In this document: in pieces, positions 8,216-62,486 of the stretch
Numbering within the stretch: the first letter of the stretch is position 1
Layout of the letters: every line of letters begins with the position of its first letter
Assembly: GCA_964568925.1 (NCBI GenBank)
Contig: CAZMSJ010000003.1
Span: 7,452 to 71,451 of the forward strand
Length of the DNA stretch: 64,000 nt
Source: an uncultured Gammaproteobacteria bacterium
GTDB taxonomy: Bacteria; Patescibacteriota; Microgenomatia; UBA8517
Direction: 5' to 3'
The notes under the pieces: model-generated
What the model was told of the DNA's origin: nothing
Databases searched by the model: none
The model's input: the letters and a program-made list of their open reading frames with translations, nothing else
Made by a program: the position numbers and the translations under genes

Positions 8216-8229
8216 AGTACAATACTCAT

Positions 8230-10002
8230 ATGGACAAACAATCAACAGAATATCTCGATAATTTACGTCATTCAACGGCGCACCTTTTGGCTGCAGCCGT
8301 TATGCAATTGTGGCCACATGCCCACCGCACAATTGGTCCAGCAATTGAAAATGGCTTTTATTTTGATTTTGATATGGGGGACACGAAAATATCAGAAGAA
8401 GACTTCCCAAAAATAGAGGAAGTAATGCATAAGCTCGTTTCTGATTGGAAATCGTTTGAACGAAGTGAAAAGACTCCAGATGAGGCAAAACAAGAGTACC
8501 CAGGAAATGGATATAAACATGAATTAATTGATGAATTTGCCAAAGATGGTCAAACACTCACTTTCTACACTTCTGGCAACTATACCGATTTATGTCGAGG
8601 TGGACATGTAATGCACCCAAATAGTGAAATCAAACACTTTAAATTGCTTTCTGTTGCAGGTGCTTACTGGAAAGGGAATGAGAAAAACAAAATGCTCACA
8701 AGAATCTATGGAACAGTTTTTCCAACAAAAGTATTGCTTGATGAACACCTCTTGCGTCTTGAAGAAGCAAAGCAGAAAGATCACAAGAAACTTGGCAAAG
8801 ATCTCGATCTCTTTGTCTTCTCTGACATTGTTGGGAAAGGATTGCCTCTTTGGACATCAAAAGGTGCTACTGTTCGACGCGAGATAGAGCGATTTATTGT
8901 TGATGAAGAAATTGCCCGAGGATACCAACACGTCTACACCCCAGATATCGCTAACCTTGCCTTGTATGAAAAGAGTGGACACTACCCATACTACAAGGAT
9001 TCCATGTATGCACCAATCACGATAGATGACGAGCAATACATGCTCCGCCCAATGACATGCCCACACCACTTTGAGCTCTACCTGTCTCGACCACACAGCT
9101 ACAAAGAACTTCCTGTGAGAATTGCAGAACTCGCCAAGCTCTATCGGTATGAACAATCAGGAGAGCTTTCAGGACTTCTTCGAGTGAGAAGTTTTTGTTT
9201 GGCTGACGCACACATTATTGCAACGAAAGAACAGGCTGCAGTTGAAGTACAAAACGCTTTGAACTTAATTCAATACATAGCAGGGGTTTTTGGATTAGAA
9301 CCAGGAGTGCACTACCGATATCGATTGTCTCTCGGTGACAGAGAGGACTCAACCAAGTACTATAAAGATGATGTAGCCTGGGAGAATGCTGAAGGTGTTC
9401 TTCGAAATGTCCTGTCGTCCCAAGATGTTCCGTTCTTTGAAGCCAGTGGCGAAGCCGCTTTCTATGGACCAAAGATTGATATTCAGATGAAGAATGTAAA
9501 TGGCAAAGAAGATACCGCCTTTACCGTTCAGTATGACTTTGTCATGCCAGGTCGATTTAAGTTAACCTACACTGATGAATCAGGGGAACTAGTGGAACCA
9601 GTGGTTATTCACCGATCCTCAGTTGGAGCCATTGAGCGTGTCATGGCATTTTTAATTGAGCACTTTTCCGGTAATTTCCCTGTTTGGCTTTCACCCTCAC
9701 AGGTAACCATCCTTCCAATTGCTGATCGCCATCAGGAATACGCAAAAGTAGTCGCTGAAGCATTCAAAACAAAGCAAGTTCGGGTGCACTTAGACCTTCG
9801 ATCAGAGACTCTTGGCGCTAAAATCCGGGATGCAGCACACGAGAGAACCCCGTATGTGGTCGTCATTGGAGACAAGGAAATTGAAGCACATTCTCTCTCA
9901 ATTCGAGCTCGGGGAGGGTCAGATTTGGGTAGTATGACCCCTGAAGCTTTCCTTGAATTTGTACTTGAAAAAATTCAGTCAAAAAGTCTGCAATTGAGCT
10001 AA
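8230..10002 (+). CDS. thrS: Threonyl-tRNA synthetase (short form, begins at the editing/SAD domain)
   Basis: HSTAHLLAAAV editing-domain motif, class II core (..RPMTCPHH.., ..RVRSFCLADAHI..) and a C-terminal anticodon-binding domain. At 590 aa it has no room for an N-terminal TGS domain. Confidence 0.93.
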   Translation: MDKQSTEYLDNLRHSTAHLLAAAVMQLWPHAHRTIGPAIENGFYFDFDMGDTKISEEDFPKIEEVMHKLVSDWKSFERSEKTPDEAKQEYPGNGYKHELIDEFAKDGQTLTFYTSGNYTDLCRGGHVMHPNSEIKHFKLLSVAGAYWKGNEKNKMLTRIYGTVFPTKVLLDEHLLRLEEAKQKDHKKLGKDLDLFVFSDIVGKGLPLWTSKGATVRREIERFIVDEEIARGYQHVYTPDIANLALYEKSGHYPYYKDSMYAPITIDDEQYMLRPMTCPHHFELYLSRPHSYKELPVRIAELAKLYRYEQSGELSGLLRVRSFCLADAHIIATKEQAAVEVQNALNLIQYIAGVFGLEPGVHYRYRLSLGDREDSTKYYKDDVAWENAEGVLRNVLSSQDVPFFEASGEAAFYGPKIDIQMKNVNGKEDTAFTVQYDFVMPGRFKLTYTDESGELVEPVVIHRSSVGAIERVMAFLIEHFSGNFPVWLSPSQVTILPIADRHQEYAKVVAEAFKTKQVRVHLDLRSETLGAKIRDAAHERTPYVVVIGDKEIEAHSLSIRARGGSDLGSMTPEAFLEFVLEKIQSKSLQLS

Positions 10003-10029
10003 ATCCACAATTTTGATACAATAGTCACG

Positions 10030-10578
10030 TTGAACAAACAATTTCACCCAACTTGGAGAATAAACGAAGCGATACGCGCACGAGAAGTGCGTGTTATTGG
10101 TGAGGATAACAAACAAATAGGGGTAATGACTCGAGATGAAGCCTTGGCACGCGCAAAAGAGCTCTCAGTCGACTTAATTGAGATCGTTCCACATGCAGAG
10201 CCACCTGTTGCCAAACTGATTGATTTCGGTAAGTTTAGGTACCAAGAGGAGAAAAAAGAGCGTGAAGTCAAGAAAAAAGCCAAGGGTGGTGAGATCAAAG
10301 AGATCCGTTTTACACCATTTATTGGGGATGGAGACTTTGAGACTCGGATCAGAAGAATCGATGAGTTCTTGGGCGATAGCAATAAGGTAAGAATTGTGGT
10401 AGTATTCAACAATCGCCAAATGGCGGGACCTGCAAACGGGTTTGCCTTAGTCAAACGCATCTTTGCCCGATTTGCCGATAGAACCATCGTCGACATGGAA
10501 CCAAAGTTCTTTGGAAAGCGCTTGGTTTGTGTCATTTCACCGACAAAGAAGGTGAAAAAGCAGGAAGAAATGATATAA
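10030..10578 (+). CDS. infC: Translation initiation factor IF-3, non-AUG start
   Basis: ..RINEAIRAREVRVIGEDNKQIGVMTRDEALARAKE.. plus the IF3 C-domain. No ATG or GTG lies in frame between the thrS stop (10000-10002) and the conserved N-terminus. Candidates are TTG 10030, ATA 10021 and ATC 10003. Confidence 0.9.
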   Translation: MNKQFHPTWRINEAIRAREVRVIGEDNKQIGVMTRDEALARAKELSVDLIEIVPHAEPPVAKLIDFGKFRYQEEKKEREVKKKAKGGEIKEIRFTPFIGDGDFETRIRRIDEFLGDSNKVRIVVVFNNRQMAGPANGFALVKRIFARFADRTIVDMEPKFFGKRLVCVISPTKKVKKQEEMI

Positions 10579-10586
10579 TTACACTC

Positions 10587-10829
10587 ATGCCAAAAGTTAA
10601 ATCACGAAAATCAGCACTAAAACGATATAAAATCACATCAAGTGGCAAGATTTTGCGTGGGCAAAGTATGACAAGTCATTTGCGAGTACGAAAGTCAGCC
10701 AAGCACAAGCGACGACTTTCAGGAACAATTGAAGTAACTGGACCATATGCAAAGAAGCTTATTAAAGCTTTAGGCATTCGAGTTCGACGAAACAAGCATG
10801 TTGTAAAAACAGTTGAAGCAGCCAAATAA
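10587..10829 (+). CDS. rpmI: Ribosomal protein L35
   Basis: MPKVKSRKSALKRYKITSSGKILR is the canonical L35 N-terminus. The track ORF start at 10527 lies inside infC and is rejected. Confidence 0.88.
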   Translation: MPKVKSRKSALKRYKITSSGKILRGQSMTSHLRVRKSAKHKRRLSGTIEVTGPYAKKLIKALGIRVRRNKHVVKTVEAAK

Positions 10830-10835
10830 ACACCT

Positions 10836-11174
10836 ATGAGAGTTAAATCATTAGCATCAATCAAACACCGAAAAATTAGAAAACTGACGAAAGGTTTTCG
10901 ACATTCAGCACGACGACGCATTACCGCTGGTAAAGAAGCGTTAATGCATGCTGGACACTATGCCTACGTAGGACGACATTTGCGAAAGCGAGATATGCGA
11001 GCTTTGTGGATCGTTCGTTTGTCAGCTGCAGTTAAGCTTGCTGGAACCAGTTATTCTAAGTTTATTGGCAGTATGAAAAAGGCAAACGTAGAACTCGATC
11101 GAAAAGTATTAGCTGAAATTGCAGTTAAAGATCCGTCTTCATTTGAAAAGATTGTTAAATTCCTTTCCCAATAA
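10836..11174 (+). CDS. rplT: Ribosomal protein L20
   Basis: MRVKSLASIKHRKIRKLTKGFRHSARR... and the conserved infC-rpmI-rplT gene order. Confidence 0.92.
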   Translation: MRVKSLASIKHRKIRKLTKGFRHSARRRITAGKEALMHAGHYAYVGRHLRKRDMRALWIVRLSAAVKLAGTSYSKFIGSMKKANVELDRKVLAEIAVKDPSSFEKIVKFLSQ

Positions 11175-11235
11175 GGGAGGTAAGTTCCGGCGTTTAACAC
11201 TTCCCCGAATTTCACTTTCAGCTTAGAATATCCTC

Positions 11236-12255
11236 ATGCACGAAGACATCAACAGAATCAGAAACGAATTCATGGCTCTTGTCATGGACGCACAAACTGA
11301 ATCTGATATCGAGGCCTTACGAATTCGCTTCCTTGGTCGAAGTGGTGCTCTCTCACACATTACCAAAGACTTAATCGCTCTTCCTGTTGAAAAAAAGAAA
11401 GAAGCAGGAAAAGCTTTAAATGAAACAAAACAAATCATCGAGAACGCGCTCACCGCTCGTATTGATGAACTTCAACAGAAACAATCAAGCTCCTTTGATG
11501 ACACCGTTCCTGGTATTGAACCAGTGATCGGACACACCCACATTGTTACCCAAGCAATTGATGAAATTTCAAAAGTATTCACAGACATCGGGTTTATCAG
11601 AAGACGATACCAAGAAGTTGAATGGGATTGGTATGCCTTTACTGCGCTAAACTTCTCTGAAAATCACCCAGCACGAGACGAATGGGAAACTTTTTTAATC
11701 GATGAAAAAGGACCAAAGTCGTTGGGAGGCATGATTTTGACCCCTCACACATCAAGTGGTCAGGTCCGAGAAATGCAACGCATTGAAACTCCACCAATTC
11801 GAATGATTAACATTAGTAAAACATACCGACGACAGTCTGATGTTTCTCACGTTCCAATGTTCCATCAATTTGAAGGGTTAGTTATTGATGAAAATATAAA
11901 TATCACCCATTTAATGGGGACCCTCGACTACTTTATGAAAACATTTTATGGTCCAGAAAGAACCTATCGAATACGCCCATACAATTTTCCATTTACCGAG
12001 CCATCATTTGAAATTGATATCGCCTGTTCCGTATGCAAAGGAAAAGGATGTCGATTGTGTAAAGCTGGATGGCTTGAGTTAGGTGGAGCAGGAATGGTGC
12101 ACCCAAATGTACTCGCAGCAGGCAACATTGATCCAAATAAATACAAAGGATATGCTTTCGGTTGGGGAGTAGAGCGTGCTTTTATGATGAAGGCAAACCT
12201 GTGGGATATTCGTATGGTCTATTCAACTGATTCTCGATTCTTAAAACAATTCTAA
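11236..12255 (+). CDS. pheS: Phenylalanyl-tRNA synthetase alpha subunit
   Basis: Class II motifs (..FEGLVID.., ..GGAGMVHPNVL.., ..GWGVERAFM..) and the pheS-pheT pairing. Confidence 0.93.
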   Translation: MHEDINRIRNEFMALVMDAQTESDIEALRIRFLGRSGALSHITKDLIALPVEKKKEAGKALNETKQIIENALTARIDELQQKQSSSFDDTVPGIEPVIGHTHIVTQAIDEISKVFTDIGFIRRRYQEVEWDWYAFTALNFSENHPARDEWETFLIDEKGPKSLGGMILTPHTSSGQVREMQRIETPPIRMINISKTYRRQSDVSHVPMFHQFEGLVIDENINITHLMGTLDYFMKTFYGPERTYRIRPYNFPFTEPSFEIDIACSVCKGKGCRLCKAGWLELGGAGMVHPNVLAAGNIDPNKYKGYAFGWGVERAFMMKANLWDIRMVYSTDSRFLKQF

Positions 12256-12259
12256 TTCT

Positions 12260-14122
12260 ATGGATATAAAAATCACCCAAGATTGGTTAAATGATTTCAT
12301 TGAAGCCAACGTATCACCACAAAAAATATCAGAACTCTTAAACCTCTATGGTCCCTCTGTTGAGAGACGAGAACAGGTAGGGGATGATACGGTCTATTCA
12401 ATTGAAGTTACCACAAACCGAGTTGATGCAGCTTCAGTCATGGGAATTGCACGAGAGTTAACGGCGATCCTTCCTCGTGATGGATATGAAATTAAAACAA
12501 AAACACCACCAGAAGTAGATCTTCCATTTAAGCAAAAGGCGAGTGTCATGGTGATTAACGATCCACTTCTAGCGAGCCGATTAATGGTCGTTGAATGCAA
12601 AAATGTGACCATTAAACCTTCACCAGAATTTATTCAAAAGAGACTAACTGCCATTGGCGTAAAACCAAAAAACAATGTGGTCGACATCACAAACTACGTA
12701 ATGTATGAACGTGGTATTCCTCTTCATGCCTTTGATATGCAAAAGCTTACTGAAAAACATTTGCTCCTGAGACTTGCACAAAAGGGAGAGACGATTGTGA
12801 CCCTTGATAACAAGAAACATGTTTTAAAAGGCACTGAAGTTGTTTTTGAAGATGGTGAAGGAGTAATTCAAGATTTACCAGGAATCATGGGGACAGCAAA
12901 CACGGCAATTGATGAGAACACCACAGAAGTTCTCTTAATTGCTGAACACATTGATCCAGTGCGTATTCGAAAAGCATCACTTTCACTTGAAATTCGAACA
13001 CATGCCGCAATCTTAAATGAGAAGAGTGTAGATGAAGAAATGATTCCATCAACTCTTGCTCGAGCAAGCTACCTATTAAAAGAATATGCAAACGCTAAAA
13101 TTATTGCCGTTCGAGATGTAAAAGAAAATAAATTCAAATCAACCTTTGTCAAAGTAAAACTTTCTCAAATTGAAGCCCTGATGGGAGTACCAATGACCGA
13201 GTCTGAAATAAGTAACATCTTACATTCCTTGGGATTCAAGACAATTTGGAGAAACAAAAAATGTACAGTAAGGATCCCATCATGGAGAAAAGAAGATGTG
13301 ACAATTGCGGAAGATGTTATAGAAGAAATTGTACGTATCTATGGATATCATGCTCTTCCACGCATTGGTCTATCTGCTCACGCACCACTTGTTCCAACAG
13401 ACCCAGAAATTGCGTTTGAACAACAAGTTAAAACTGCATTAGTTAAAACCGGTGCATGTGAAGTTGTGACCTTGTCACTTGTTCCACAAGAGTGGGTAAC
13501 TGATGGGGTTAAAATCGCCAACCCATTAGGTGCTGATGGAGCATATTTGCGAACTGCAATTTTGCCGTCACTTATTGCTGCAGCAGAAGGCAATAGACAT
13601 GAGAAAGAGCCATTCCATATGTTTGAAATTGGACACGTCTTCAAACGAAAAAACAATTCGTTGCCAGATGAGGTAACTCATGTTGCAGGAATATTCATGA
13701 ATACAAATTACCGTGCAGCAAAGGGAACTCTTGCTTCGCTGTTAAAACAAATTGGTTCAACTGCAGAAGTAGAGCTATCAGCCAAAGGCAATTATTTTGT
13801 ATATGAAGTTCCACTACATACATTAAAAGATACCCAAGTGTCAGAGCGTACCTTTATGCCAATTCCTAAGTACCCACCACAGGTTGAAGATATGACATTT
13901 GTACTTCCTAAAAAGGTGCCGGTAGGATCTGTCATTACATCTATTCAAAAAATATCAGAGCTGATTGTGTCCGTTGATCTAGTGGACATCTATAACGATG
14001 CATACACAGTAAGAATTACCTACCAACATCCAGAAAAGACATTAACTGATAGGGAAATCACCCCAATTCGAAAGGAAATTACTCACTTTGTTGAAAAGGA
14101 ACTCAAAGGAGAAATTAAGTAA
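12260..14122 (+). CDS. pheT: Phenylalanyl-tRNA synthetase beta subunit (short form lacking the N-terminal OB tRNA-binding domain)
   Basis: The B1-like start MDIKITQDWLNDFIE runs almost directly into ..YSIEVTTNRVDAASVMGIAREL.. A C-terminal FDX-ACB-like tail is present. Length is 620 aa. Confidence 0.88.
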   Translation: MDIKITQDWLNDFIEANVSPQKISELLNLYGPSVERREQVGDDTVYSIEVTTNRVDAASVMGIARELTAILPRDGYEIKTKTPPEVDLPFKQKASVMVINDPLLASRLMVVECKNVTIKPSPEFIQKRLTAIGVKPKNNVVDITNYVMYERGIPLHAFDMQKLTEKHLLLRLAQKGETIVTLDNKKHVLKGTEVVFEDGEGVIQDLPGIMGTANTAIDENTTEVLLIAEHIDPVRIRKASLSLEIRTHAAILNEKSVDEEMIPSTLARASYLLKEYANAKIIAVRDVKENKFKSTFVKVKLSQIEALMGVPMTESEISNILHSLGFKTIWRNKKCTVRIPSWRKEDVTIAEDVIEEIVRIYGYHALPRIGLSAHAPLVPTDPEIAFEQQVKTALVKTGACEVVTLSLVPQEWVTDGVKIANPLGADGAYLRTAILPSLIAAAEGNRHEKEPFHMFEIGHVFKRKNNSLPDEVTHVAGIFMNTNYRAAKGTLASLLKQIGSTAEVELSAKGNYFVYEVPLHTLKDTQVSERTFMPIPKYPPQVEDMTFVLPKKVPVGSVITSIQKISELIVSVDLVDIYNDAYTVRITYQHPEKTLTDREITPIRKEITHFVEKELKGEIK

Positions 14123-14160
14123 AAAACCTCAAAACTCTTCACGAGTGATATAATCCTATA

Positions 14161-14763
14161 TTGCCCAAATGGTATTTCAATATGAATACTTTCTTTTTGG
14201 GCCAAAAAAAATACATAACAATTCCTCTTGCAATAGCGATAGGATTCTACTTTTTGCCTCTTACGATACTTGCTGCAATTGCATATTTTACGAAGCAGAA
14301 AGTCACTAACCAAGGAATAAGGCGTATCTGCTACATAATTCTTGTGATCTTTGCCTTCCCACTCGTACTCGCATATGCAACTCCAACCGACAATGCACCC
14401 AAAAGTACTGTGTCCGTACAAGAAACGACAAAAGTATCACCTGCTACAAATACACCAACAGTACAACCAAGTACTGAGAAGCCAAAAATGATTGATTCTA
14501 TTTCAACTGAAACAATGAAGACAAAGGCAGTATTGGCAACGACAATGGCAAAAGCTACTCCTCGGCCAACAACAACTCCAGTTCAACCTGTAAACACACC
14601 AGCAGTAGCCCCGCGATACTCATGTAATTGTTCAAAAACCTGTACAGAAATTAGTAGCTGTGACGAAGCTCAGTATTTACTAAATGTATGTGGCTGCGGA
14701 GCGAGAGACAATGACAAAGATGGAATAGCGTGTGACAGTGCACCACTGCATTGTCAGAATTAA
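14161..14763 (+). CDS. Membrane protein with a P/T-rich linker and a C-terminal Excalibur calcium-binding domain
   Basis: Two TM helices. C-terminus ..CSKTCTEISSCDEAQYLLNVCGCGARDNDKDGIACD.. carries the DxDxDGxxC loop. The start is TTG 14161 or ATG 14182. Confidence 0.7.
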   Translation: MPKWYFNMNTFFLGQKKYITIPLAIAIGFYFLPLTILAAIAYFTKQKVTNQGIRRICYIILVIFAFPLVLAYATPTDNAPKSTVSVQETTKVSPATNTPTVQPSTEKPKMIDSISTETMKTKAVLATTMAKATPRPTTTPVQPVNTPAVAPRYSCNCSKTCTEISSCDEAQYLLNVCGCGARDNDKDGIACDSAPLHCQN

Positions 14764-14765
14764 GG

Positions 14766-17330
14766 TTATTGAGAATCCCAAGAAGTACCAACTCCAATTT
14801 GAATCTTTCTGTCTGATTGATTTCCTTTGTCATCTTTAACTACTGCTCGAAGTGTGTGAACTCCATTTGTTAACTCTGTTTCAAACTCATACGGAGCCCC
14901 TGTAAAACTGCGTACCGTTGTTCCATCTACCTCTAACCATACATTTGACAGGTTATTGAGTGATGACACCTTAAAACTGATTTTCAAAGCTTTGTCGAGG
15001 TTTGAGGAACGGTCTGTTGGGCTTACAAAGTCAATATTTAAGGGAGCACTCGTTACACCAGAACAATATTCAGTTGGAACTTTGTATTTTCCATTGTCAG
15101 GCTGGCTATTGATCCACTCAATAATTCCTTTTTGCCATTTGTTCTCTCCACCAGCTGGTGCTGTTGGATCTTCTTCCTTCAAGATAATAAATTCCTTGTT
15201 TTCATAATTGTTTGCAGCCACATCAGATGGTGTTGCAAGTTTTCCTTCACCTTTACACACTTTCAAATTGACATGCATGGTGTCATCTCCAGGTTCTGTC
15301 CCCTTTACGAAGTATTCTGTTCTGTCAGGGAAACCATCATGAGACTTTAATCCTGAAATTCGATCTACGGTCTGAGTGGTTACTTCACTTGGGGTATCAA
15401 ATGGAACAACAGGTTTGTTGGCAACAGCAGCTTTTACAATTCTGTTCCAGATTGGAGAGGCTCCTGAGACACCAGAGGCCACCTGTTTCATTGCAGAATT
15501 ATCGTTGTTACCTACCCAGGTACCAACAATTACTTGTGGTGTTCCTCCAATTGCCCAGTTATCACGTCGATCATTTGTTGTACCAGTTTTAACAGCAACC
15601 GCTCGGCCAGGAATATTTAATAGAGAATTTAAGCCAAAGGTATCTTTTCGCGCATCATTATCTGAGAGGATATTTGAAATGATGTATGCAACGTCAGTTG
15701 GAATAACTTGATTTCCTTTCTTTGGACTATTTTTTTCAAGAACCTTTCCATCTTGATCTTGGACTTCAAGAATTGCGACCGGATCAACACGATATCCTTG
15801 GTTTAAGAATGCAGAGTAGGCTGAAGTAATTTCAACTAACTTAACTTCACCACCACCTAAGGCAAGTGACAAACCGACCCGTGACATCGTTGCTGCCGTT
15901 GGCTGAAGACTTGAAATACCCATGTCGTTAGCTAGTGTCAACACATCTTTAATACCAACTAATGCAATTAACTTAACAGCAGGAATGTTAAGGGAGTTTG
16001 CCAATGCATAGCGCAACTGAACAGGACCTCTGAATTTTCCATCATAGTTAACTGGAGTGTAATCAGGTTGATTTGCTCCTCCCGGGAAGTTTGTCGGTGC
16101 ATCAACAAGAACACTTGCTGCGGTGTACCCCTTTTCAAGAGCCTTGGTATAGACAATTGGTTTAATTGCAGAGCCTGGCTGTCGAAGTGATGTCGTTACG
16201 TTTACCTGTCCATCATAATCTTTGGCGTTAAAGTCTTTTGAACCTACCATTGCCAAAATTTCCCCAGTTTGTGGGTCAATGGCAACCGCTGCACCATTTC
16301 CAATATGAAGTGACTGAACTTTCTCAATTTCTTCTGAAACAATTGATTGTGCTTTCTCCTGCAAATCAAGATCAAGGGTGGTGGTCACTTTAAGTCCTCC
16401 ACGAGCAACCGTTTCTTCACCATATCTGTCATTTAAAATGTTTTGTACATACTGTACAAAGTGAGGAGCTTTAAAGTCAGCTCCCTTTGGTTGGAATTCA
16501 AGGTTATCTAGTGCAGTACGAGCTTCTTGTTCCTGCTCTTTGGTGATATAGGAATCCTCTCGCATACGACGTAATACTTCTTGAGTTCGACCGATATATG
16601 CTTTGTTAGGGTTTAAGTATGGTGAATAGTAGGGAGGTCTTTGAGGAAGTCCTGCCAAGAAGGCACACTCAACTAAATTTAAATCTTTTACACTTTTGCC
16701 AAAATAAATTTCAGCAGCTGTCCCAGCACCGTATGCTGAGCCACCATATGGTGCTTCATTTAGGTAAAGCGTTAAGATTTCGTCTTTTGAATACTTCTTT
16801 TCAATCTGCAAGGTCAAAATAAGTTCCTTTACTTTACGAATTGCAGTTCGCTCAGGAGTTAAGAGCACATTTTTAACTAACTGCTGGGTTAATGTTGAAC
16901 CTCCAATAAGTCGCTGCTTCGTTATTAAGTTTTGTAAAATACGTAAATACCCTAATGGATCAAACCCTTGATGGGTATAGAAATTCTTGTCTTCAATCGC
17001 AATCGTTCCTTTCTTTAAGTATTCAGGGATGTCAGACAAGGTAACAGGGCTTCGTCGTTGATCAACATAGACGTCATACAAGAGCTTTCCATTTCTGTCT
17101 AAAATCTTTGTTGAAAATCCATCATGACGTACGATGTTTTCTGGAGCAGGAAGAAGGAAAGTCATTACTTGAAACCCAACAAAAGCAACAACAACTGAAA
17201 CTAGAAAGACAATAAAACCAATTTTGACAAACGTGGCAATTCTCTGAGATCGAGAAGCTGGGGGACGACCAGACGGAGTAAGTGGTCTTCTTGCTTGGCG
17301 ACTATTCATACGTGCTCGTTCTTTCCACAT
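14766..17330 (-). CDS. Class A penicillin-binding protein (GT51 transglycosylase plus transpeptidase) with a C-terminal Ig-like domain
   Basis: GT51 motifs EDKNFYTHQGFD and GGSTLTQQL. Transpeptidase motifs SAIKP, SLN and KTGTT. N-terminal TM anchor. Confidence 0.92.
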   Translation of the reverse strand: MWKERARMNSRQARRPLTPSGRPPASRSQRIATFVKIGFIVFLVSVVVAFVGFQVMTFLLPAPENIVRHDGFSTKILDRNGKLLYDVYVDQRRSPVTLSDIPEYLKKGTIAIEDKNFYTHQGFDPLGYLRILQNLITKQRLIGGSTLTQQLVKNVLLTPERTAIRKVKELILTLQIEKKYSKDEILTLYLNEAPYGGSAYGAGTAAEIYFGKSVKDLNLVECAFLAGLPQRPPYYSPYLNPNKAYIGRTQEVLRRMREDSYITKEQEQEARTALDNLEFQPKGADFKAPHFVQYVQNILNDRYGEETVARGGLKVTTTLDLDLQEKAQSIVSEEIEKVQSLHIGNGAAVAIDPQTGEILAMVGSKDFNAKDYDGQVNVTTSLRQPGSAIKPIVYTKALEKGYTAASVLVDAPTNFPGGANQPDYTPVNYDGKFRGPVQLRYALANSLNIPAVKLIALVGIKDVLTLANDMGISSLQPTAATMSRVGLSLALGGGEVKLVEITSAYSAFLNQGYRVDPVAILEVQDQDGKVLEKNSPKKGNQVIPTDVAYIISNILSDNDARKDTFGLNSLLNIPGRAVAVKTGTTNDRRDNWAIGGTPQVIVGTWVGNNDNSAMKQVASGVSGASPIWNRIVKAAVANKPVVPFDTPSEVTTQTVDRISGLKSHDGFPDRTEYFVKGTEPGDDTMHVNLKVCKGEGKLATPSDVAANNYENKEFIILKEEDPTAPAGGENKWQKGIIEWINSQPDNGKYKVPTEYCSGVTSAPLNIDFVSPTDRSSNLDKALKISFKVSSLNNLSNVWLEVDGTTVRSFTGAPYEFETELTNGVHTLRAVVKDDKGNQSDRKIQIGVGTSWDSQ

Positions 17331-17373
17331 GTTCTTATTCTATCAAATTTCGATGCGGTATACTTGAAAATCT

Positions 17374-17826
17374 ATGTGGTACAACCTAAACAAGCGAATA
17401 ATCTTAACCTTTGGCCCACCTCTCATTAAACTTTTGGGTCTTTCTCTTCCAACAATTGGCTCTGCGGTAACCATTATTGAGAAGGACGGAAAAATATTAG
17501 CAGTTAACTTAGCCTACAAAAATGGTTACTCACTACCTGGTGGTGGTGTAAACAAAGGAGAGACACTTGAAGAGGCAGTAATTCGAGAAGTAAAAGAGGA
17601 AACAAACTTAACCCTTGAGAATCCAGTCTACTTTGGCAGTGAGGCAGCTGACATGAAAACGTATGGAGTTGTTTCAGCTCTCTTTATTGGAACAGTTACA
17701 GACTTAACCGCGTTATCTTCCTCAACTGAAGGGGAAGTGACCTGGGAAGACCCACGGTTTGTATGGGAGCATGCAGCATATAAAGATGTAAAAAAGCACC
17801 TTGGAAATTACTTCGGCTTCAAATAA
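17374..17826 (+). CDS. NUDIX hydrolase
   Basis: Nudix box GGGVNKGETLEEAVIREVKEETNL. Confidence 0.8.
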   Translation: MWYNLNKRIILTFGPPLIKLLGLSLPTIGSAVTIIEKDGKILAVNLAYKNGYSLPGGGVNKGETLEEAVIREVKEETNLTLENPVYFGSEAADMKTYGVVSALFIGTVTDLTALSSSTEGEVTWEDPRFVWEHAAYKDVKKHLGNYFGFK

Positions 17827-17852
17827 CCTTCCGTTCGTACTACAATCAAGAC

Positions 17853-19007
17853 ATGCAAGATCTCTTTACTCGTTCAGTATCAAATGTTCTTCCAACGAAG
17901 GATGCATTAGTTAAGCTTTCAACTGAAAAAAAGTTGCGTGTGTACTTAGGAATTGACCCAACAGCAACAAGAATTCATTTAGGGCACGCTGTTGCACTTC
18001 GAAAAATTGCACAGTTTGCAAAGGAAGGGCATCACGTTACTTTTTTAATCGGAGACTTTACCGCCCTTATTGGAGATACATCAGACAAGGAAAGTGAGCG
18101 ACCAATCTTAACTCAAGAAGAAATTAAAGAAAACTTTAAAACATACAAAGAACAAGCTGAGAAGATTCTTGATTTTTCTAAAATAACAGTTCGACACAAT
18201 AGTGAATGGCTTTCCAAGTTAACCTTTGCAGATATTGTGAAATTAACTCAACACTTTGCTGTTGGTGACTTTGTTGGACGAGAACTAATAAAAAAACGAC
18301 TTGAAACCGGTAAAAAGGTTGGACTTCATGAAACGCTCTACCCAGTTATGCAAGGATATGACAGTTATTTCCTTGAAACTGATGTGCAAGTTGGTGGAGC
18401 TGATCAAACATTTAACATGCTTGCAGGACGCACCCTAATTAAAGAGATTGATAAACGTGAGTCGTATGTCTTAACCGTTGGCTACCTTGAAGGAACTGAT
18501 GGCAGAAAAATGAGTAAAACATGGGGAAACGCAATTTGGCTCACGGACACTCCAGACGATATGTATGGCAAAGTAATGAGTTTGAAAGATGAATTGATGC
18601 CAAGTTACTTTGAACATGCAACAAATATGGATAGCCAAACCCTTCTTCAAATGAAAAAGAGAATTGAGGATGGGGAACACCCAATGGAGTTAAAACACAT
18701 TTTGGCAAAACAAATTGTCACAGAACTCCACTCACGGGAACTTGCTGAGGAAGCACAGGAGAATTGGCAGAAAACATTTCAAGAGAAAAAACCTGAATTT
18801 ACTGAAGTGATGAAAGTAACCAGTGGGGAAACCCTTGCAAATCTTGTTGGTCAACGAGTCGGAAGTGTTTCACAAGCAAAACGACTGCTTGCTGACAATG
18901 CGATACATGTAAATGGTGAAACAGTGACAGATGGAAAGCAAAACGTTGCAGAAGGTGATAAAATTCAAATCGGTAAGAAAATATTTATAACTGTTACCCT
19001 TGTATGA
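17853..19007 (+). CDS. tyrS: Tyrosyl-tRNA synthetase
   Basis: HIGH-type motif (..TRIHLGHAV..), KMSKT, and a C-terminal S4-like domain (..AKRLLADNAIHVNGETV..). Confidence 0.9.
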   Translation: MQDLFTRSVSNVLPTKDALVKLSTEKKLRVYLGIDPTATRIHLGHAVALRKIAQFAKEGHHVTFLIGDFTALIGDTSDKESERPILTQEEIKENFKTYKEQAEKILDFSKITVRHNSEWLSKLTFADIVKLTQHFAVGDFVGRELIKKRLETGKKVGLHETLYPVMQGYDSYFLETDVQVGGADQTFNMLAGRTLIKEIDKRESYVLTVGYLEGTDGRKMSKTWGNAIWLTDTPDDMYGKVMSLKDELMPSYFEHATNMDSQTLLQMKKRIEDGEHPMELKHILAKQIVTELHSRELAEEAQENWQKTFQEKKPEFTEVMKVTSGETLANLVGQRVGSVSQAKRLLADNAIHVNGETVTDGKQNVAEGDKIQIGKKIFITVTLV

Positions 19008-19111
19008 AACAAAAGAAAAAACTTATTGTAAAAATTTTAGTAGTCCTTGCAGGAGTTGGACTCGTTTTAACTTCGTTCCTGCCATATTTGCCATACATTC
19101 TGTCTCGATAA
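19004..19111 (+). CDS. 35-aa single-TM micro-protein, translationally coupled to tyrS
   Basis: ATGA overlap with the tyrS stop. Translation is MKQKKKLIVKILVVLAGVGLVLTSFLPYLPYILSR. It is below the ORF-track length cutoff. Confidence 0.35.
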   Translation: MKQKKKLIVKILVVLAGVGLVLTSFLPYLPYILSR

Positions 19112-19127
19112 TAAACAGATACAACAC

Positions 19128-21128
19128 ATGACTCTGAACGATTCTGTTACCGCAGTTACCCATGTTGGTCCTGAGTATGCAAAAAAATTAGTAAAACTTG
19201 GTATCTACTCCGTTCGTGATTTACTTACCCACATTCCGTCTCGCTACACTGATTTGTCCCAAGAATCCTCAATCGCACACCTTACCGTCAATGAAACAGT
19301 AACGGTTAAAGGAACGATTGTTGTTATAAAGAATGTATTTACAAAAACAGGAAAGACATTTCAGGAGGCAACCTTGTCTGACGGTGACTACTCAGTAAAG
19401 ATCGTTTGGTTTAATCAACCATTTTTAGTCAGAAGCTTCCCAACAAACACTCTGGTGTCTCTCTCTGGCAAAGTGTCCCTCTGGAAAGGAAAGCCAGCTT
19501 TAATTGCACCATCATGGGAGAAAATTCAAGCAACAGGGGAGACAATTCATACCGGGAGAATTGTTCCGGTTTATGCTGAAACTGCCGGTATTACTTCAAA
19601 ATGGTTACGTGCAACGATTAAACGCGCAATGGATTCAGTGACAATCACGGACTATTCACTACAAACGGATTTACTTGATCTTAAAACGGCTTACCATGAC
19701 ATTCATTTTCCCGTTTCAATGGATGACGCAGTAAACGCCCGAAAACGATTGGCTTTTGATGAGCTCTTAGGGCATCAAATCGTTTCAAAACTAGAAAAAA
19801 TTAAATGGAGAAAGTTTCACAAGTCCCCGGTAATTCCATTAAACGAGAACACTCTTGAGAAATTTGTTTCCAGTTTGCCATTCACACTAACAAACAGTCA
19901 ACAAAGATCGATTGACGAAATACTTGCTGATTTGACGCAAAAAATACCAATGAACAGACTTCTTGAAGGAGATGTTGGAAGTGGAAAGACCGTCGTTGCC
20001 GCCGCCAGTGCCTTTATGGTCTATGCAGCAGGTTTTCAAACAATTGTTATGGCACCAACACAAATATTGGCAGAACAACATGCCAGTACCTTAAAAAGAA
20101 TTCTTGAACCATTTAGTGTTCGAGTTGCATTAATCACCGGGGGAGTGAAAGAAGATATTGTAGGCAGAGCCGATGTTGTTGTTGGAACACACGCGCTTCT
20201 GCATCACCCGGAACTCTATAAAGAAGTGGGGCTTGTCGTTATTGATGAACAACACCGGTTTGGTGTAAGGCAAAGAGCATTAATTACTGAGCTCTCTGAG
20301 AAAAGACGACTTACCCCTCACATTTTGACAATGACCGCGACCCCAATTCCAAGAACAATTGCATTAACCTTGTATGGAGAACTTTCCCTCTCAACTCTTG
20401 ATGAATTACCGTCTGGTCGTATTCCTATTAAAACATGGGTGATAACTGACCAAAAACGGGAGAGCGCTTATCAATGGATTGAAACAGAAATCGCCACACA
20501 TAAGTCACAAGTCTTTGTGGTATGTCCATTAATTGATGAAAGTGAGGTTGCCACTATGAAAGAAGTAAAGGCAGCCAAAGCTGAGTATGAAAAGCTTAAG
20601 GAACTGTTTCCCAACCGAAAAGTGGTACTTCTTCATGGAAAAATGAAGAAACAGGAAAAAAGCCAAATCTTAAGTGACTACAAAGATGGTTTGTATGACA
20701 TTTTAGTCACAACTCCAGTCGTTGAGGTTGGTATCGACATCCCGAACGCCAGTATTATGATGATTGAAGCTTCTGAGCGTTTTGGCTTGGCACAGCTTCA
20801 TCAGCTCCGTGGACGTGTCGGTCGAGGGACACTCGCCTCATATTGTCTCTTAATGACAACTGCCTCAGGCGCCAGTAAAGAGCGTTTACAGGCTATGACC
20901 AAGACATTGTCTGGGCGAGAATTGGCAGAGTTTGACTTGTCACTGCGTGGACCAGGAGAGATCTTTGGTACCAGACAATCAGGTATAACTGAGCTCAAAA
21001 TTGCCAGTTGGCAGGACACAGATCTCATCTCAAAAGCAAGCAGTACCGCACAACTGGTGGTCGAAAATCAGGAAAAACACGAAGATATCATTACCTTCTT
21101 TGCCTCACAACAAATTACGGCTAACTAG
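19128..21128 (+). CDS. recG: ATP-dependent DNA helicase RecG
   Basis: N-terminal OB wedge, Walker A GDVGSGKT, DEQHRFG, TATPIPRT, and motif VI QLRGRVGRG. Confidence 0.92.
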   Translation: MTLNDSVTAVTHVGPEYAKKLVKLGIYSVRDLLTHIPSRYTDLSQESSIAHLTVNETVTVKGTIVVIKNVFTKTGKTFQEATLSDGDYSVKIVWFNQPFLVRSFPTNTLVSLSGKVSLWKGKPALIAPSWEKIQATGETIHTGRIVPVYAETAGITSKWLRATIKRAMDSVTITDYSLQTDLLDLKTAYHDIHFPVSMDDAVNARKRLAFDELLGHQIVSKLEKIKWRKFHKSPVIPLNENTLEKFVSSLPFTLTNSQQRSIDEILADLTQKIPMNRLLEGDVGSGKTVVAAASAFMVYAAGFQTIVMAPTQILAEQHASTLKRILEPFSVRVALITGGVKEDIVGRADVVVGTHALLHHPELYKEVGLVVIDEQHRFGVRQRALITELSEKRRLTPHILTMTATPIPRTIALTLYGELSLSTLDELPSGRIPIKTWVITDQKRESAYQWIETEIATHKSQVFVVCPLIDESEVATMKEVKAAKAEYEKLKELFPNRKVVLLHGKMKKQEKSQILSDYKDGLYDILVTTPVVEVGIDIPNASIMMIEASERFGLAQLHQLRGRVGRGTLASYCLLMTTASGASKERLQAMTKTLSGRELAEFDLSLRGPGEIFGTRQSGITELKIASWQDTDLISKASSTAQLVVENQEKHEDIITFFASQQITAN

Positions 21129-53797: not shown

Positions 53798-53883
53798 GAT
53801 AGACTCCTTTTTTTTAAGTGAACAAACAAACACTCATTTCTACCCCTTTTTGTTTTCTCTTGCTAGTATGAAAACATTAAAAG

Positions 53884-55940: not shown

Positions 55941-56384
55941 ATGACCACTCTTGAACGAACGTTTTTGAATCAGCATCTAGAAATTCTAGAATTAGTTGTT
56001 TACAGCCAACGAATCCAAGATTCTGCGCTTGTTCCCCAAAAACAAGGCCTTTATCAGTACTTTGAAGAACGTTCAAAGAAGAGGCTTTTTCCTCAACCGA
56101 GGAGACCTATTGGACAACTCATAGAAATCTTTTGGCGTGAACTAGCACCTGACGAAGAATATGCGGTGTGTTTTACGTCAAACGCACGCGTTGTTGATTC
56201 GATAGTTTTTTGGTCAGATTACAAAAAAACTGCCGAATCTTTGTATGCCCTTCAGGGGGCACCAATTCACAATTTGAGCAATGCATTGTCAAACCTGAAC
56301 TGGGGAGTATCTTGGGAATTTGAGGGATATAACAAAACTATAACGGTTGTTTGCCCGCTTCGTATTCCCTTTCCAGTTTGTTAG
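55941..56384 (+). CDS. Hypothetical protein
   Basis: GAGGAG SD before ATG 55941. No motif recognised. Confidence 0.45.
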   Translation: MTTLERTFLNQHLEILELVVYSQRIQDSALVPQKQGLYQYFEERSKKRLFPQPRRPIGQLIEIFWRELAPDEEYAVCFTSNARVVDSIVFWSDYKKTAESLYALQGAPIHNLSNALSNLNWGVSWEFEGYNKTITVVCPLRIPFPVC

Positions 56385-57184: not shown

Positions 57185-57209
57185 ACCCTGATTATACTAG
57201 AATGAAGGA

Positions 57210-58019
57210 ATGAAGTTAGTTATCTCCACTGATTCAGTAGGAATTGCAACAAATCCAGCTCATTTTAAAGACGTATGGGGCTTTGTCATGAAACACAAAC
57301 AGTTTGCTGGAGTTGAAATGCTTGCCTGGAGAAACCTTGAAGCAAAAGTTAAAGCCTTTGAGAAAGCTCATATCCCCATCTGTGGAATGCATGGAAAAAC
57401 CGGAGGAATGCGAGAAGCAACACAGGTGAGCCAGTACCCCATCTACTTCCTTATGCAAGAGGTTTTTGCCCCAATCCGAGTGGAGGCCCAGGTTGCGACA
57501 AAATACAATCTTCACTACCTTCTGGTTCATGTAGAGTACGCTCGAGAGCTCTTGGAAACCAAAAATGAACAAATAGTGTCGTCCATTCCGCTTCTGGTTG
57601 AAAACGACATCGAGAGATCAAGCCATACAAAGACTCTGGCAGCGATTAAAACGCTGCGAGAAAAGAAGATACAGGCCAACATGGTGTTCGACATCGTTCA
57701 CGCGATTCGAAGCACTCGTGAGCCATTTGACAAGGCCTTCGACTATGCCTTAACACTCTTAACACACGTTAGCCCAATGGCTATTCATCTTCCCGTCGGA
57801 ACATACCTCTCAGACTCACTTCCATGGGAGCAGATGACCCAACACCAGTTTGAAGCACTTGCTCGAGCAATTAGTCATGTTTCACCAACCTACCTTATTA
57901 TCGAAAACCAACAACAGAGAATCTATTCATACCTCGCTCCAAAAGGAGTGAGAGAAAAACAGAGAGCTCGAAATGAGCGTATCATTGAAAAGATGGTGAA
58001 GATCGGTATACTGCAATAA
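57210..58019 (+). CDS. Hypothetical protein, possibly a xylose-isomerase-like TIM barrel
   Basis: Weak pattern only (..LLVHVEY.., ..LLVENDIE.., ..DIVHA..). Its stop overlaps the next start (TAATG). Confidence 0.35.
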   Translation: MKLVISTDSVGIATNPAHFKDVWGFVMKHKQFAGVEMLAWRNLEAKVKAFEKAHIPICGMHGKTGGMREATQVSQYPIYFLMQEVFAPIRVEAQVATKYNLHYLLVHVEYARELLETKNEQIVSSIPLLVENDIERSSHTKTLAAIKTLREKKIQANMVFDIVHAIRSTREPFDKAFDYALTLLTHVSPMAIHLPVGTYLSDSLPWEQMTQHQFEALARAISHVSPTYLIIENQQQRIYSYLAPKGVREKQRARNERIIEKMVKIGILQ

Positions 58020-60062: not shown

Positions 60063-60138
60063 ACTAGGTGACAGTATACCTGAATATGGTATATTAAACA
60101 AAAGTTATGGGGCGATTGCCTCAAAGGAGCAGGTATTT

Positions 60139-61065: not shown

Positions 61066-61161
61066 GTCTACCTCACATAACTAAATCATGGTTACTGTGC
61101 GTATTATAGGTGAGATCTGGTTAATTTTCAAGGAATACTTAAAGATGTAAGATAAGATCTA

Positions 61162-61926
61162 ATGAAAATAACCAGACATAAAAGAAATGAAATAATGAAT
61201 GTGTGCAGAAAGCTTATCTCAGCACACAAGAACAGATTGATTAGCAGCTACCCTTTGCCTGAAGATAATTGTCCGAATTTCGGGAGAACTAATGAAGATC
61301 TAGAAAGAAAATTATTTTATTTTACACTTCCTATGTGTATGAACTATCGAAGGAATAGTGTGCAACTATGGAAAGCTACTTTAGAAACATTTAACGATCC
61401 AACAACTAGTGAGATTTTTTCCATTAGTTATTCTTCAAAGATACTGATTTCTGACTTAAAGGAAAAACTTTTAAAGTATAAAATGGCAATGCAGCCGGTT
61501 AGGCACGCAGATAATTGGTATAGGATATCAAATACAATTTATAACAACTGGGGGTCTATTTCAGAGATGCTTGAAGCAGTTGATTATGATTTTTTAAAAT
61601 TAAAGCAGACGGTACAAAGAGAATTTAAATCAGGGTTCCCATATTTATCTGGACCGAAACTATTTAATTATTGGAGTTATATTCTCACAACTAAATGTGA
61701 TGTTCCTCTTCAACATAAGGATATGATTGATATTGCAGTAGACACACATGTGATACAGTCTTCAATTAAACTCGGTATCATCAGTCAAAGTGAAGGTGAA
61801 AATTCTAATAGAGAGGATATCGCGAAAGTATGGAGTTCTTTTCTGAAAGGCTCAGATATTGCCCCTGTAGAACTGAATGTACCATTTTGGTTTTGGAGTA
61901 GAGACGGGTTTACCTTCAAAGTTTAG
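61162..61926 (+). CDS. HhH-GPD-superfamily DNA glycosylase-like protein
   Basis: ..FPYLSGPKLFNYWSYIL...IDIAVDTHVIQSSIKLGI.. parallels the EndoIII segment LPGVGRKTANVVL...IAVDTHIFRV, giving candidate Lys and Asp residues. Confidence 0.5.
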   Translation: MKITRHKRNEIMNVCRKLISAHKNRLISSYPLPEDNCPNFGRTNEDLERKLFYFTLPMCMNYRRNSVQLWKATLETFNDPTTSEIFSISYSSKILISDLKEKLLKYKMAMQPVRHADNWYRISNTIYNNWGSISEMLEAVDYDFLKLKQTVQREFKSGFPYLSGPKLFNYWSYILTTKCDVPLQHKDMIDIAVDTHVIQSSIKLGIISQSEGENSNREDIAKVWSSFLKGSDIAPVELNVPFWFWSRDGFTFKV

Positions 61927-62458
61927 AAACGGCCTCTAAAAGTTCGTCATACTTTTTAGTTTCAATGTCCTCTTGTTTTAAACCAAACTTACTTGCTTGA
62001 TCAAAAATTTGCCTCTCTGAATCAGAAATTTTGTCTTCACTTGTTAATATTTCTATTTCTAAATAACTTCCAAGGCCATCCACTTCGTCCAAAGCAATAC
62101 TTATTTCGCCTTCCTTATATTCAATTCGCCTTTTATTAACTAAACTAACCTGATTAAAATTACATTCCTTAAGAATGTCTTGCATTATATTAGCTGAGCT
62201 AATAACTAGCTCATGCTCAACAGCGTCTCCAGAAGTATTTATCACTCGCTTGCAAGTCATCTTGGTTTCCTCTCCAACAGTACGAATCCTCACGACGGGC
62301 ATTCCACGTTTGAATTGTCTAAAAGATTTGATTTTCTGAAGGAAAATAATGTCTGATTGAAACACTGATTGAGCATGGCCATGTTTGTTCTCGAGAAGAC
62401 TTAGTATCTTACTCTTTTGATCTTTATTTATTTTAAATTTACGTTCAACTTCAATCAT
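61916..62458 (-). CDS. CYTH-domain protein (CyaB-type class IV adenylyl cyclase / triphosphatase fold)
   Basis: N-terminal MIEVERKF (the ExExK motif). Length is about 180 aa. The start is moved to ATG 62458. Confidence 0.65.
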   Translation of the reverse strand: MIEVERKFKINKDQKSKILSLLENKHGHAQSVFQSDIIFLQKIKSFRQFKRGMPVVRIRTVGEETKMTCKRVINTSGDAVEHELVISSANIMQDILKECNFNQVSLVNKRRIEYKEGEISIALDEVDGLGSYLEIEILTSEDKISDSERQIFDQASKFGLKQEDIETKKYDELLEAVSKL

Positions 62459-62486
62459 ATACGCAGTATAAACCCAAAAGCTTTTT

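Follow-up and report, generated by a model that had tools for sequence, protein, structure and literature searches.

Recurrent TANNNT hexamers standing 5 to 7 nucleotides (nt) before start codons, at genes that lack a Shine-Dalgarno (SD) sequence, raise the question of how transcription and translation begin in the bacterium that carries them. We analyzed a 64,000-nt stretch of contig CAZMSJ010000003.1 (positions 7,452 to 71,451 of the forward strand), referred to here as the window, and found that these hexamers are very probably −10 boxes giving leaderless-type expression. In the explanation that we favor, the hexamers would be the −10 elements of ordinary sigma-70-type promoters, many of them with an upstream TRTGn and/or a TTGaca-like −35 element at 17 bp. 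With a spacer of 6 to 7 nt between hexamer and start codon, RNA polymerase would initiate on the A of the ATG, and with a spacer of 8 to 10 nt it would initiate 1 to 4 nt upstream. The products would be leaderless or nearly leaderless mRNAs that need no SD; the analogy with other bacteria suggests that ribosomes would bind directly to their 5'-terminal AUG. The arrangement would be a trait of the clade, present at roughly one gene in four and one transcription-unit head in three, for the most part conserved housekeeping genes. A canonical SD would serve the genes that have a real 5' leader, mostly lineage-specific ones plus the major pilin gene and tdk, and tightly packed operon-internal genes would use neither signal. 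Where transcription starts, and in what way the mRNAs are translated, we infer from the DNA sequence.

The window has a GC content of ~41% and holds ~69 genes, and ~20 of its proteins have no Pfam family. Pfam supports thrS, infC, rpmI, rplT, pheS, pheT, a class A penicillin-binding protein (PBP), tyrS, recG, rpmF, nusB, rnc and rpsP, a type IV pilus operon (pilB, pilT, pilC, pilD, pilins, pilM and pilO), and hisS, Pif1, gyrB, tdk, obg and proteins with NAGPA and CYTH domains. The gene names of an initial annotation of this DNA are thereby borne out, except for its Excalibur label, for which the Pfam hit is below threshold (18.7 bits against a cutoff of 22); we call that gene Excalibur-like. 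The source organism is a Patescibacteria (candidate phyla radiation, CPR) bacterium of Microgenomates type. Its PheS relatives, drawn from one-genome-per-species contigs, are all Patescibacteria/CPR, the named ones being mostly Woesebacteria, Levybacteria and Microgenomates. The closest, L001, is 86% identical in PheS and 77% identical to the window overall, and the remaining relatives reach at most 61% PheS identity. L001 and many close relatives were deposited as metagenome-assembled genomes (MAGs) named "uncultured Gammaproteobacteria bacterium"; PheS and gene order place them with Patescibacteria, and the deposited label of L001 and the other relatives looks wrong. For comparison we used 80 pheS-centered loci from these relatives, amounting to 1.37 Mb and 1108 open reading frames (ORFs). 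A scan of the whole window at Rfam gathering thresholds gave no hits, and a tRNA scan of the window found none.

The initial annotation had listed 15 hexamers of this kind, and all 15 are present (Table 1), with spacers of 5 nt at nusB and pilB and 6 or 7 nt at the others. The start codon is ATG in 13 cases and TTG in two (infC and the Excalibur-like gene), and for Pif1 it is the second ATG of the ORF. A scan for SD sequences, defined as a match of at least 4 nt to AAGGAGGTGA between positions −20 and −3, found none at any of the 15 genes. The list was accurate but incomplete, since at least four further boxes had been missed, those before 57210, 58019, 55976 and 47740. Individual boxes differ in strength. 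The nusB box is the likeliest chance hit among the 15: a hexamer is found in only 2 of 25 orthologues and neither TGn nor a −35 accompanies it, and the matrix score described below is modest for pheS and Pif1. The Excalibur-like gene may instead begin at ATG 14182, in which case its leader would be 21 nt long. For the CYTH gene, the Pfam profile starts precisely with the Met encoded at 62458, residue 21 in the longest ORF. The M16 peptidase gene has an alternative start at 55859 with TATACT at 8 nt. The DUF2130 gene overlaps the upstream stop codon (TAATG), and its box would therefore be an internal promoter.

Table 1. Predicted promoter elements, SD sequences and the thrS leader in the window. 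Spacing is the number of nt between the element and the start codon; p is the empirical p value of the promoter matrix; orthologues are those with a hexamer at a spacer of 5 to 8 nt.
Gene	Element	Coordinates	Strand	Spacing and start	p	Orthologues	Remarks
thrS leader	Promoter TTGACA-17 bp-CATAAT (8010-8038); reduced T-box (8048-8174); terminator hairpin and T-run (8163-8216)	8010-8216	+				
thrS	TACAAT	8218-8223	+	6 nt, ATG 8230	0.0065	13/25	No TGn, no −35; directly after T-box terminator
infC	TTGAGC-17 bp-TGaTACAAT	9994-10022	+	7 nt, TTG 10030	0.0005		
rpmI	GTGAAA-16 bp-TGaTATAAT	10552-10579	+	7 nt, ATG 10587	0.0009	2/22	Overlaps infC stop codon
pheS	TAGAAT	11224-11229	+	6 nt, ATG 11236	0.036	36/67	
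Excalibur-like	TGaTATAAT	14146-14154	+	6 nt, TTG 14161	0.0079		
PBP	TAGAAT with TGn	17337-17342	-	6 nt, ATG 17330	0.0042	12/23	
NUDIX	TATACT	17359-17364	+	9 nt, ATG 17374			Predicted leader ~2 nt; not in initial annotation
tyrS	TTCAAA-17 bp-TACAAT	17818-17846	+	6 nt, ATG 17853	0.0005	34/40	
rpmF	TTTACA-17 bp-TACAAT	21146-21174	+	7 nt, ATG 21182	0.0018	17/23	
nusB	TATACT	21350-21355	+	5 nt, ATG 21361	0.0097	2/25	No TGn, no −35
rpsP	TTGAAA-17 bp-TAAAAT	22365-22393	+	6 nt, ATG 22400	0.0069	9/14	Overlaps rnc stop codon
pilB	TATAAT	33929-33934	-	5 nt, ATG 33923	0.0023		Head of type IV pilus operon
hisS	TTGACT-17 bp-TACACT	34525-34553	+	7 nt, ATG 34561	0.0037		
Pif1 helicase	TATAAT	41613-41618	-	7 nt, second ATG 41605	0.074		No TGn, no −35; weak case
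Hypothetical	TGtTATAGT	47749-47754 (box)	-	8 nt, GTG 47740	0.013		Not in initial annotation
M16 peptidase	TAGAAT	55983-55988	-	6 nt, ATG 55976	0.014		Not in initial annotation
NAGPA domain	TATAAT	57191-57196	-	6 nt, ATG 57184	0.006		
Hypothetical	TAGAAT	57198-57203	+	6 nt, ATG 57210	0.0055		Not in initial annotation
DUF2130	TATACT, with TTGAAA 16 bp upstream	58007-58012	+	6 nt, ATG 58019	0.0074		Not in initial annotation
CYTH	TATACT	62465-62470	-	6 nt, ATG 62458	0.012		
SH3 domain	SD AAGGAG	4083-4088	+	7 nt, GTG 4096			
Major pilin	SD AAAGGAGGTGA	29863-29873	-	4 nt, ATG 29858			Example of leadered SD class
Orphan	SD GGAGGTGA	48118-48125	-	ATG 48115			TGgTATAAT ~27 nt upstream of ATG
tdk	SD AAGGAG	53804-53809	-	6 nt, ATG 53797			
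Others	SD AAGGGAG			50318			
Others	SD GGGAGGG			53947			
Others	SD AAGGAG			54377 and 60139			
Others	SD GAGGAG			55941			
Others	SD GAGGT			61065			

The hexamers are far more frequent at this distance from start codons than chance would provide. We fixed the window starts before inspecting the motif, taking the first start of each ORF or, for small ribosomal proteins, a Pfam-anchored Met. TANNNT then occurs at a spacer of 5 to 7 nt at 19 of 69 starts, compared with 6.45 ± 2.37 when each gene's own upstream 40 nt was shuffled, and 0 of 5000 shuffles reached 19. The initial annotation had named a genome-wide check of positional enrichment against shuffled controls; within the window the enrichment stands out from composition-matched shuffles, and it is replicated in the 80 related loci. 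Hexamers matching TATAAT in at least five of six positions number 17 at spacers of 5 to 7 nt and 0 to 6 in any other 3-nt window, and 22 genes have the motif in the 6- to 8-nt window compared with 1 to 10 in other spacer windows of the same upstream regions. A promoter matrix trained on the relatives only placed 14 of the 69 first starts at an empirical p of <0.01, where 0.7 would be expected (binomial p = 9e-15). A naive spacer profile of the window peaks at 6 nt (10 of 63 starts, compared with ~2 at flanking spacers). In the relatives, where the first ATG was taken blindly for the profile, TANNNT is found 135 times at a spacer of 6 nt, 77 times at 7 nt and ~30 times elsewhere, with a preference of 6 over 7 over 8 or 9 nt, shoulders at 8 to 11 nt and 5 nt at background. 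GGAG-type motifs form a weak hump only in these loci, and the spacer peak is absent from high-GC (Uhrbacteria-like) relatives. The share affected is ~18 of the 69 window genes, and 19% of 1002 ORFs of the relatives score above the 99th percentile. A generic promoter scan of positions 7000 to 23000 gave 27 matches compared with 33 ± 6 in shuffled sequence and is uninformative alone; five of its matches coincide with hexamers.

The surroundings of the hexamers have the anatomy of a promoter. We aligned 215 hexamers found at spacers of 6 to 7 nt and compared them with 612 control hexamers situated further upstream. The free positions of the 215 hexamers are t/a, A (72%) and A/C (83%). Directly upstream stand T (59%), R, T (60%), G (46%) and n, which is the TRTGn of an extended −10 element, and exactly 17 bp upstream there is T-T (55% and 51%) followed by A-rich sequence, which is the −35 element. 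The aligned consensus is thus TRTGnTAtAAT with a TTGaca-like −35 at 17 bp, whereas the 612 control hexamers are flat at all promoter-element positions. The boxes in the window show the same features: TGn precedes 5 of 19, whereas its rate among the controls is 6.8% (p = 0.008), and a −35 with at least four of six matching positions is present at 7 of 19 compared with 15% (p = 0.017), both elements being missing individually at thrS, nusB and Pif1. The base at −1 is a pyrimidine in 86% of spacer-6 cases compared with 65% of other genes. A distance of 6, then 7, nt and a pyrimidine at −1 fit the start-site choice of bacterial RNA polymerase.

The position of genes within transcription units and the conservation of the boxes point in the same direction. 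A hexamer at a spacer of 6 to 7 nt is found before 32 to 36% of genes that are divergent from their neighbor or follow it after 16 to 60 nt, compared with 11% of genes that lie at most 15 nt behind a same-strand gene. In the window, the hexamer precedes 14 of 43 operon-first genes and 4 of 24 internal ones, and one of these four, CYTH, becomes first when its likely start is used. The hexamer recurs among the orthologues of the operon-first genes tyrS, rpmF, rpsP, pheS, thrS and PBP (Table 1), compared with 0 of 51 for pheT and 0 of 8 for the KH gene, both operon-internal, 6 of 44 for rplT and 3 of 20 for rnc. When the window is set against L001, the −10 boxes of infC, rpmI, pheS, PBP and NUDIX are intact while neighboring bases and spacers change: the spacer drifts from 6 to 8 nt at PBP and from 9 to 7 nt at NUDIX, and at pheS the box and start are fully conserved and the rest of the spacer has diverged. 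The operon-internal orthologues of pheT, rplT, rpmI and KH (loci L002 to L080; window genes at 12260, 10836 and 22625) mostly lack both an SD and a −10 box, an SD-like match being present in 3 of 51 pheT orthologues, and the 12 nt upstream of operon-internal genes are A-rich (40 to 50% A). Translational coupling and SD-independent initiation on unstructured A-rich RNA are candidates for how starts are recognized at such genes.

The SD is genuinely used elsewhere in the window, and its absence at the hexamer genes is therefore meaningful. The SD sites quoted in the initial annotation are present before all the genes that it listed, and the true start of the major pilin is the second ATG of its ORF. 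A survey of CPR ribosomes detected the anti-SD less often (48%) in a Parcubacteria subgroup and described its loss as otherwise rare (PMC9297842), which fits the real SDs seen here. We looked for the 3' end of 16S rRNA in the window and the 80 loci, and it is absent from all of them; that the anti-SD is retained is something we infer only from long SDs such as that of the major pilin. SDs are found at only ~13 to 17% of genes, and most internal genes have neither SD nor hexamer. Loci richer in leaderless-type starts tend to use the SD less (Spearman −0.40, p = 0.004).

The two types of start divide genes by conservation. In the window, 16 leaderless-type genes have a Pfam family and 2 do not, compared with 3 and 9 SD genes (Fisher p = 0.0012). 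Among the 1002 ORFs of the relatives, a homologue is present in 22 other loci (median) for the leaderless type, in 1.5 for the SD type and in 7 for the remaining ORFs (leaderless versus SD, p = 1e-9), and with stricter cutoffs (a 6-nt SD and ORFs of at least 250 amino acids) the medians are 38 and 2; because all loci are pheS neighborhoods, "conserved" in this comparison partly means "syntenic core." The initial annotation had proposed a split by gene class, setting the hexamer genes against orphan or secreted genes. Statistically the split stands, and its axis is conserved core versus lineage-specific genes. A division into secreted and cytoplasmic proteins finds no support, as an N-terminal hydrophobic segment is equally frequent in the leaderless-type and SD classes (9% and 10%). 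We therefore put forward, tentatively and with somewhat more doubt than belief, that the initiation mode may mark a gene's evolutionary status in Microgenomates-type CPR: core genes (aminoacyl-tRNA synthetases, ribosomal proteins, PBP and PilB) would be leaderless, genes that are lineage specific or were acquired recently would be SD led, as would a few with very high expression (such as the major pilin), and a large third class of operon-internal genes would have neither signal.

The region from thrS to rpmI contains the sites that the initial annotation considered awkward for a pure promoter explanation, thrS for lying directly after a T-box terminator and rpmI for lying inside the 3' end of infC. 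A T-box-like leader, with a near-consensus promoter of its own, and a strong terminator do precede thrS. In a relaxed scan of a 251- to 401-nt stretch, RF00230 matches positions 8048 to 8174 with 42 bits (E ~3e-8); the leader fails the curated threshold of 93 bits, and standard annotation therefore misses the thrS T-box. The sequence AAGUGGAACCACGG aligns with the T-box motif, and the stem I loop holds ACC (Thr) followed by A; stem I is heavily truncated to ~30 nt, with 72 model positions replaced by 5 nt. The terminator has at least 20 pairs and a U-run and overlaps the 3' strand of the antiterminator (z = −5.3), and its T-run ends 1 nt before the thrS hexamer. In a read-through transcript the thrS AUG would be preceded only by UUUUUUAGUACAAUACUCAU, with no SD. 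The thrS box is indeed the weakest site for a promoter. Most thrS orthologues have no detectable T-box motif but a good box at 6 to 7 nt, several of them with TGn. The most economical reading is that thrS was ancestrally leaderless in the clade and that the lineage of the window added or kept an upstream T-box unit. Expression of thrS probably takes two routes here, a basal leaderless transcript and a read-through transcript that is induced by uncharged tRNA and has an SD-less AUG. In two relatives, L035 and L015, we considered a shared T-box behind the arrangement TTTTTTAGTAnnAT-6-ATG upstream of thrS. This was ruled out, since tRNA genes are found upstream instead, and the T-run probably ends the tRNA unit. 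In L010 (5952-6128), and also in L019, the T-box match ends ~19 nt before the thrS ATG (...GTCGTCTTC TAAGTAG TAATAT AAAACT ATG), which leaves no room for a separate terminator and T-run; the T-box there may act on translation, or the terminator strand may lie inside the coding region.

In Escherichia coli, the thrS-infC-rpmI-rplT cluster has internal promoters, and infC is autoregulated via an unusual start codon. The gene order is the same in the window, with the predicted infC promoter inside the 3' end of thrS and the predicted rpmI promoter inside the 3' end of infC, and infC again has a non-AUG start. Unlike in E. coli, this start is UUG rather than AUU and coincides with the predicted 5' end or stands a few nt from it, and thrS is preceded by a T-box leader rather than by an operator mimicking tRNA-Thr. 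In 42 of 44 relatives, the TTG is the only canonical infC start between the upstream stop codon and the conserved RINE motif, and the −10 box of the orthologues lies 6 to 14 nt from it. A non-canonical in-frame ATC or ATA start 6 to 7 nt after the box was considered and dropped, as it fits one locus (L049) but not others. The block from 9975 to 10130 (+), which covers the infC promoter, the TTG start at 10030 and the first ~100 nt of coding sequence, is 95 to 98% identical to L001, compared with 50 to 65% for the flanking 3' end of thrS and an average of 77%. This arrangement suggests that IF3 might be autoregulated via a weak start codon that sits right at, or close to, the beginning of the mRNA. 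For rpmI, the supposedly awkward position proved to hold a complete promoter that overlaps the infC stop codon; a hexamer is found in only 2 of 22 orthologues, one of them that of L001, where the promoter is conserved, and we read it as a young internal promoter.

Several other accounts of the hexamers have to be weighed against leaderless promoters. The pattern could be a by-product of AT-rich intergenic sequence, upstream stop codons and an annotator's free choice of starts. TANNNT is indeed loose: after shuffling, any 3-nt window is still hit at ~9% of the starts (6.45 of 69). Several boxes (rpmI and rpsP) share bases with the stop codon of the preceding gene, and two of the 15 original cases, Pif1 and CYTH, needed a start other than the first. 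The starts that were fixed blind to the motif nevertheless gave 19 occurrences that no shuffle equaled, the matrix gave 14 hits where 0.7 was expected, no other spacer window approached the 22 genes of the 6- to 8-nt window, and the pattern is replicated in 80 independent loci and orthologue by orthologue. We give this account next to no credence and regard it as already refuted as far as sequence statistics allow. The hexamer might otherwise act in the RNA, as an A/U-rich, SD-independent signal for ribosome landing or start selection on leadered transcripts, for example one that is bound by S1. A T-box read-through transcript of thrS must be translated without an SD and with the hexamer inside the RNA, and SD-independent initiation on leadered RNA clearly exists in the clade, where most operon-internal genes have A-rich upstream sequence and no SD. 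This idea, which the initial annotation had kept as a fallback, fares poorly on several counts. TRTGn and a −35 at 17 bp are meaningful for RNA polymerase only; they lie upstream of any transcript that begins near the ATG, outside the proposed RNA site, and therefore cannot act in that RNA. The hexamer is missing exactly where an internal signal is needed (pheT, KH and mostly rplT) and is enriched after intergenic gaps and at divergent genes. At its free positions it resembles the TATAAT consensus instead of being merely rich in A and U, and the spacer peak at 6, then 7, nt is the separation expected between a −10 box and the first transcribed base. An RNA signal is accordingly most improbable.

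It is unlikely, though less so, that the promoters are real and the mRNAs not leaderless, with very short leaders or with true start codons further downstream. The spacer shoulders at 8 to 11 nt, the variable distance of the infC boxes from the conserved TTG, the 2-nt spacer drift between the window and L001, good boxes at longer spacers (NUDIX, 9 nt; obg, 10 nt; gyrB, 19 nt) and the alternative ATG 21 nt downstream in the Excalibur-like gene speak for it. The sharp mode at 6 nt (135) and 7 nt (77), the lack of SDs after these promoters and the anchoring of conserved starts by orthologue alignment and Pfam (the CYTH Met of 62458 and the N termini of L35 and IF3) speak against it, and short leaders would differ from the leaderless promoters that we favor in degree only. 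Leaderless promoters themselves face some difficulties. A constitutive promoter downstream of the T-box leader and terminator would bypass that control of thrS. Model bacteria make poor use of a 5'-terminal UUG as a leaderless start, and at the two TTG starts (infC and the Excalibur-like gene) the base at −1 is a purine, so that a 1-nt leader is equally likely there. Conservation in relatives is lacking for the rpmI and nusB boxes, and ~1 of the 14 matrix hits at p < 0.01 is expected by chance. The related loci are pheS neighborhoods rather than whole genomes, and their starts were set by simple rules (the first ATG, or the one nearest to the alignment with the window protein) rather than by a trained gene finder.

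Some further features of the window touch on these starts. The NAGPA gene and the gene at 57210 are divergent and 25 nt apart (57185-57209), with two −10 boxes back to back, and in the compact divergent pair of pilB and holB (33924-33945) a shared palindromic ATTATATAAT reads TATAAT on both strands. Good TATACT boxes precede the NUDIX gene, obg (60073-60078) and gyrB (48241-48246), all without an SD; they predict very short leaders (~2 to 12 nt) and hence a continuum from leaderless to short-leadered mRNAs. In the hypothetical gene at 35818-36480, the first ATG is abutted directly by TACAAT, and an AAAGGAG SD stands 6 nt before GTG 36447 (36447-36486, −); its real start is probably this GTG on a ~25- to 30-nt leader, and the longest-ORF call is probably wrong. 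Elsewhere, positions 36965 to 39628 (+) hold an overlapping cluster in which two D-Ala-D-Ala-ligase-family (ATP-grasp) genes flank a C39-like peptidase gene.

Arrangements of this kind have been described in other bacteria. In "TA-led" genes, which make up >20% of genes, TANNNT precedes the start by ~12 bp and was interpreted as a −10 box, hence as a sign of leaderless mRNA (Zheng et al. 2011, PMC3160421). GeneMarkS-2 defines a "group C" in which a Pribnow box lies 6 to 8 nt from the starts of first genes in operons, with a ribosome-binding site (RBS) for the rest, in 25 to 50% of operons (Lomsadze et al. 2018, PMC6028130). The two surveys report the trait mainly for Actinobacteria and Deinococcus-Thermus, and the passages searched in them make no mention of CPR or Patescibacteria. 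As there, the motif in the window and its relatives is localized 6 to 8 nt from the starts of first-in-operon genes, a substantial share of genes is affected, the system is dual, with an SD-type RBS at some of the other genes, and at medium GC the motif reads TAtaaT. Unlike in group C, an SD is found at few genes here and a large third class has neither signal. Zheng et al. also describe translation genes (COG J) as less likely to be leaderless (PMC3160421), whereas aminoacyl-tRNA synthetase and ribosomal protein genes are typical leaderless cases in our data. Leaderless transcriptomes have been mapped in Mycobacterium tuberculosis, M. smegmatis, Deinococcus deserti and Streptomyces coelicolor (cited in PMC6028130). 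The promoter-to-ATG geometry, the lack of an SD and the prevalence of ATG (13 of 15 here) are shared with those genomes; they were mapped by differential RNA sequencing (dRNA-seq) and proteogenomics, whereas the arrangement here is predicted from sequence, and they are GC-rich with a bare TANNNT, whereas at 41% GC the full TRTGnTATAAT and −35 are seen. Group B of GeneMarkS-2 (Bacteroidetes type) has the same non-SD motif before first and internal genes, and that motif is consequently not a promoter (PMC6028130). Most genes here resemble group B in lacking an SD, with A-rich sequence before many starts, but the motif is missing from internal genes and carries a −35 and TGn. In a search of the available literature, judged partly by title and abstract, we found no work linking leaderless expression to CPR/Patescibacteria, including Saccharibacteria and Parcubacteria/Microgenomates; the co-occurrences of the terms that were looked up in the text were reference-list entries or unrelated mentions. 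Leaderless expression of this kind is known, and the lineage appears to be new.

These results do not overturn current understanding, as the mechanism is already well known. They add a deep-branching phylum with reduced ribosomes to the leaderless-rich lineages, which bears on whether leaderless initiation is ancestral. They also have practical consequences. Start calling in CPR MAGs depends on the initiation model of the gene finder, and callers centered on the SD will mis-start genomes with a −10 box at −12 to −7 and few SDs, with many short ORF extensions; in the window, taking the longest ORF gives a wrong start for at least four genes (CYTH, the major pilin, tdk and the one at 36480). In genetic tools for Patescibacteria, a promoter could be fused directly to the ATG of a core gene, with no RBS. 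The contrast between leaderless core genes and SD-led accessory genes amounts to a testable claim about the way in which new genes become integrated. Should the pattern extend to whole genomes and to the phylum at large, a deep-branching lineage with reduced ribosomes would have leaderless initiation as its default, and the presence of an SD could flag accessory or horizontally acquired genes.

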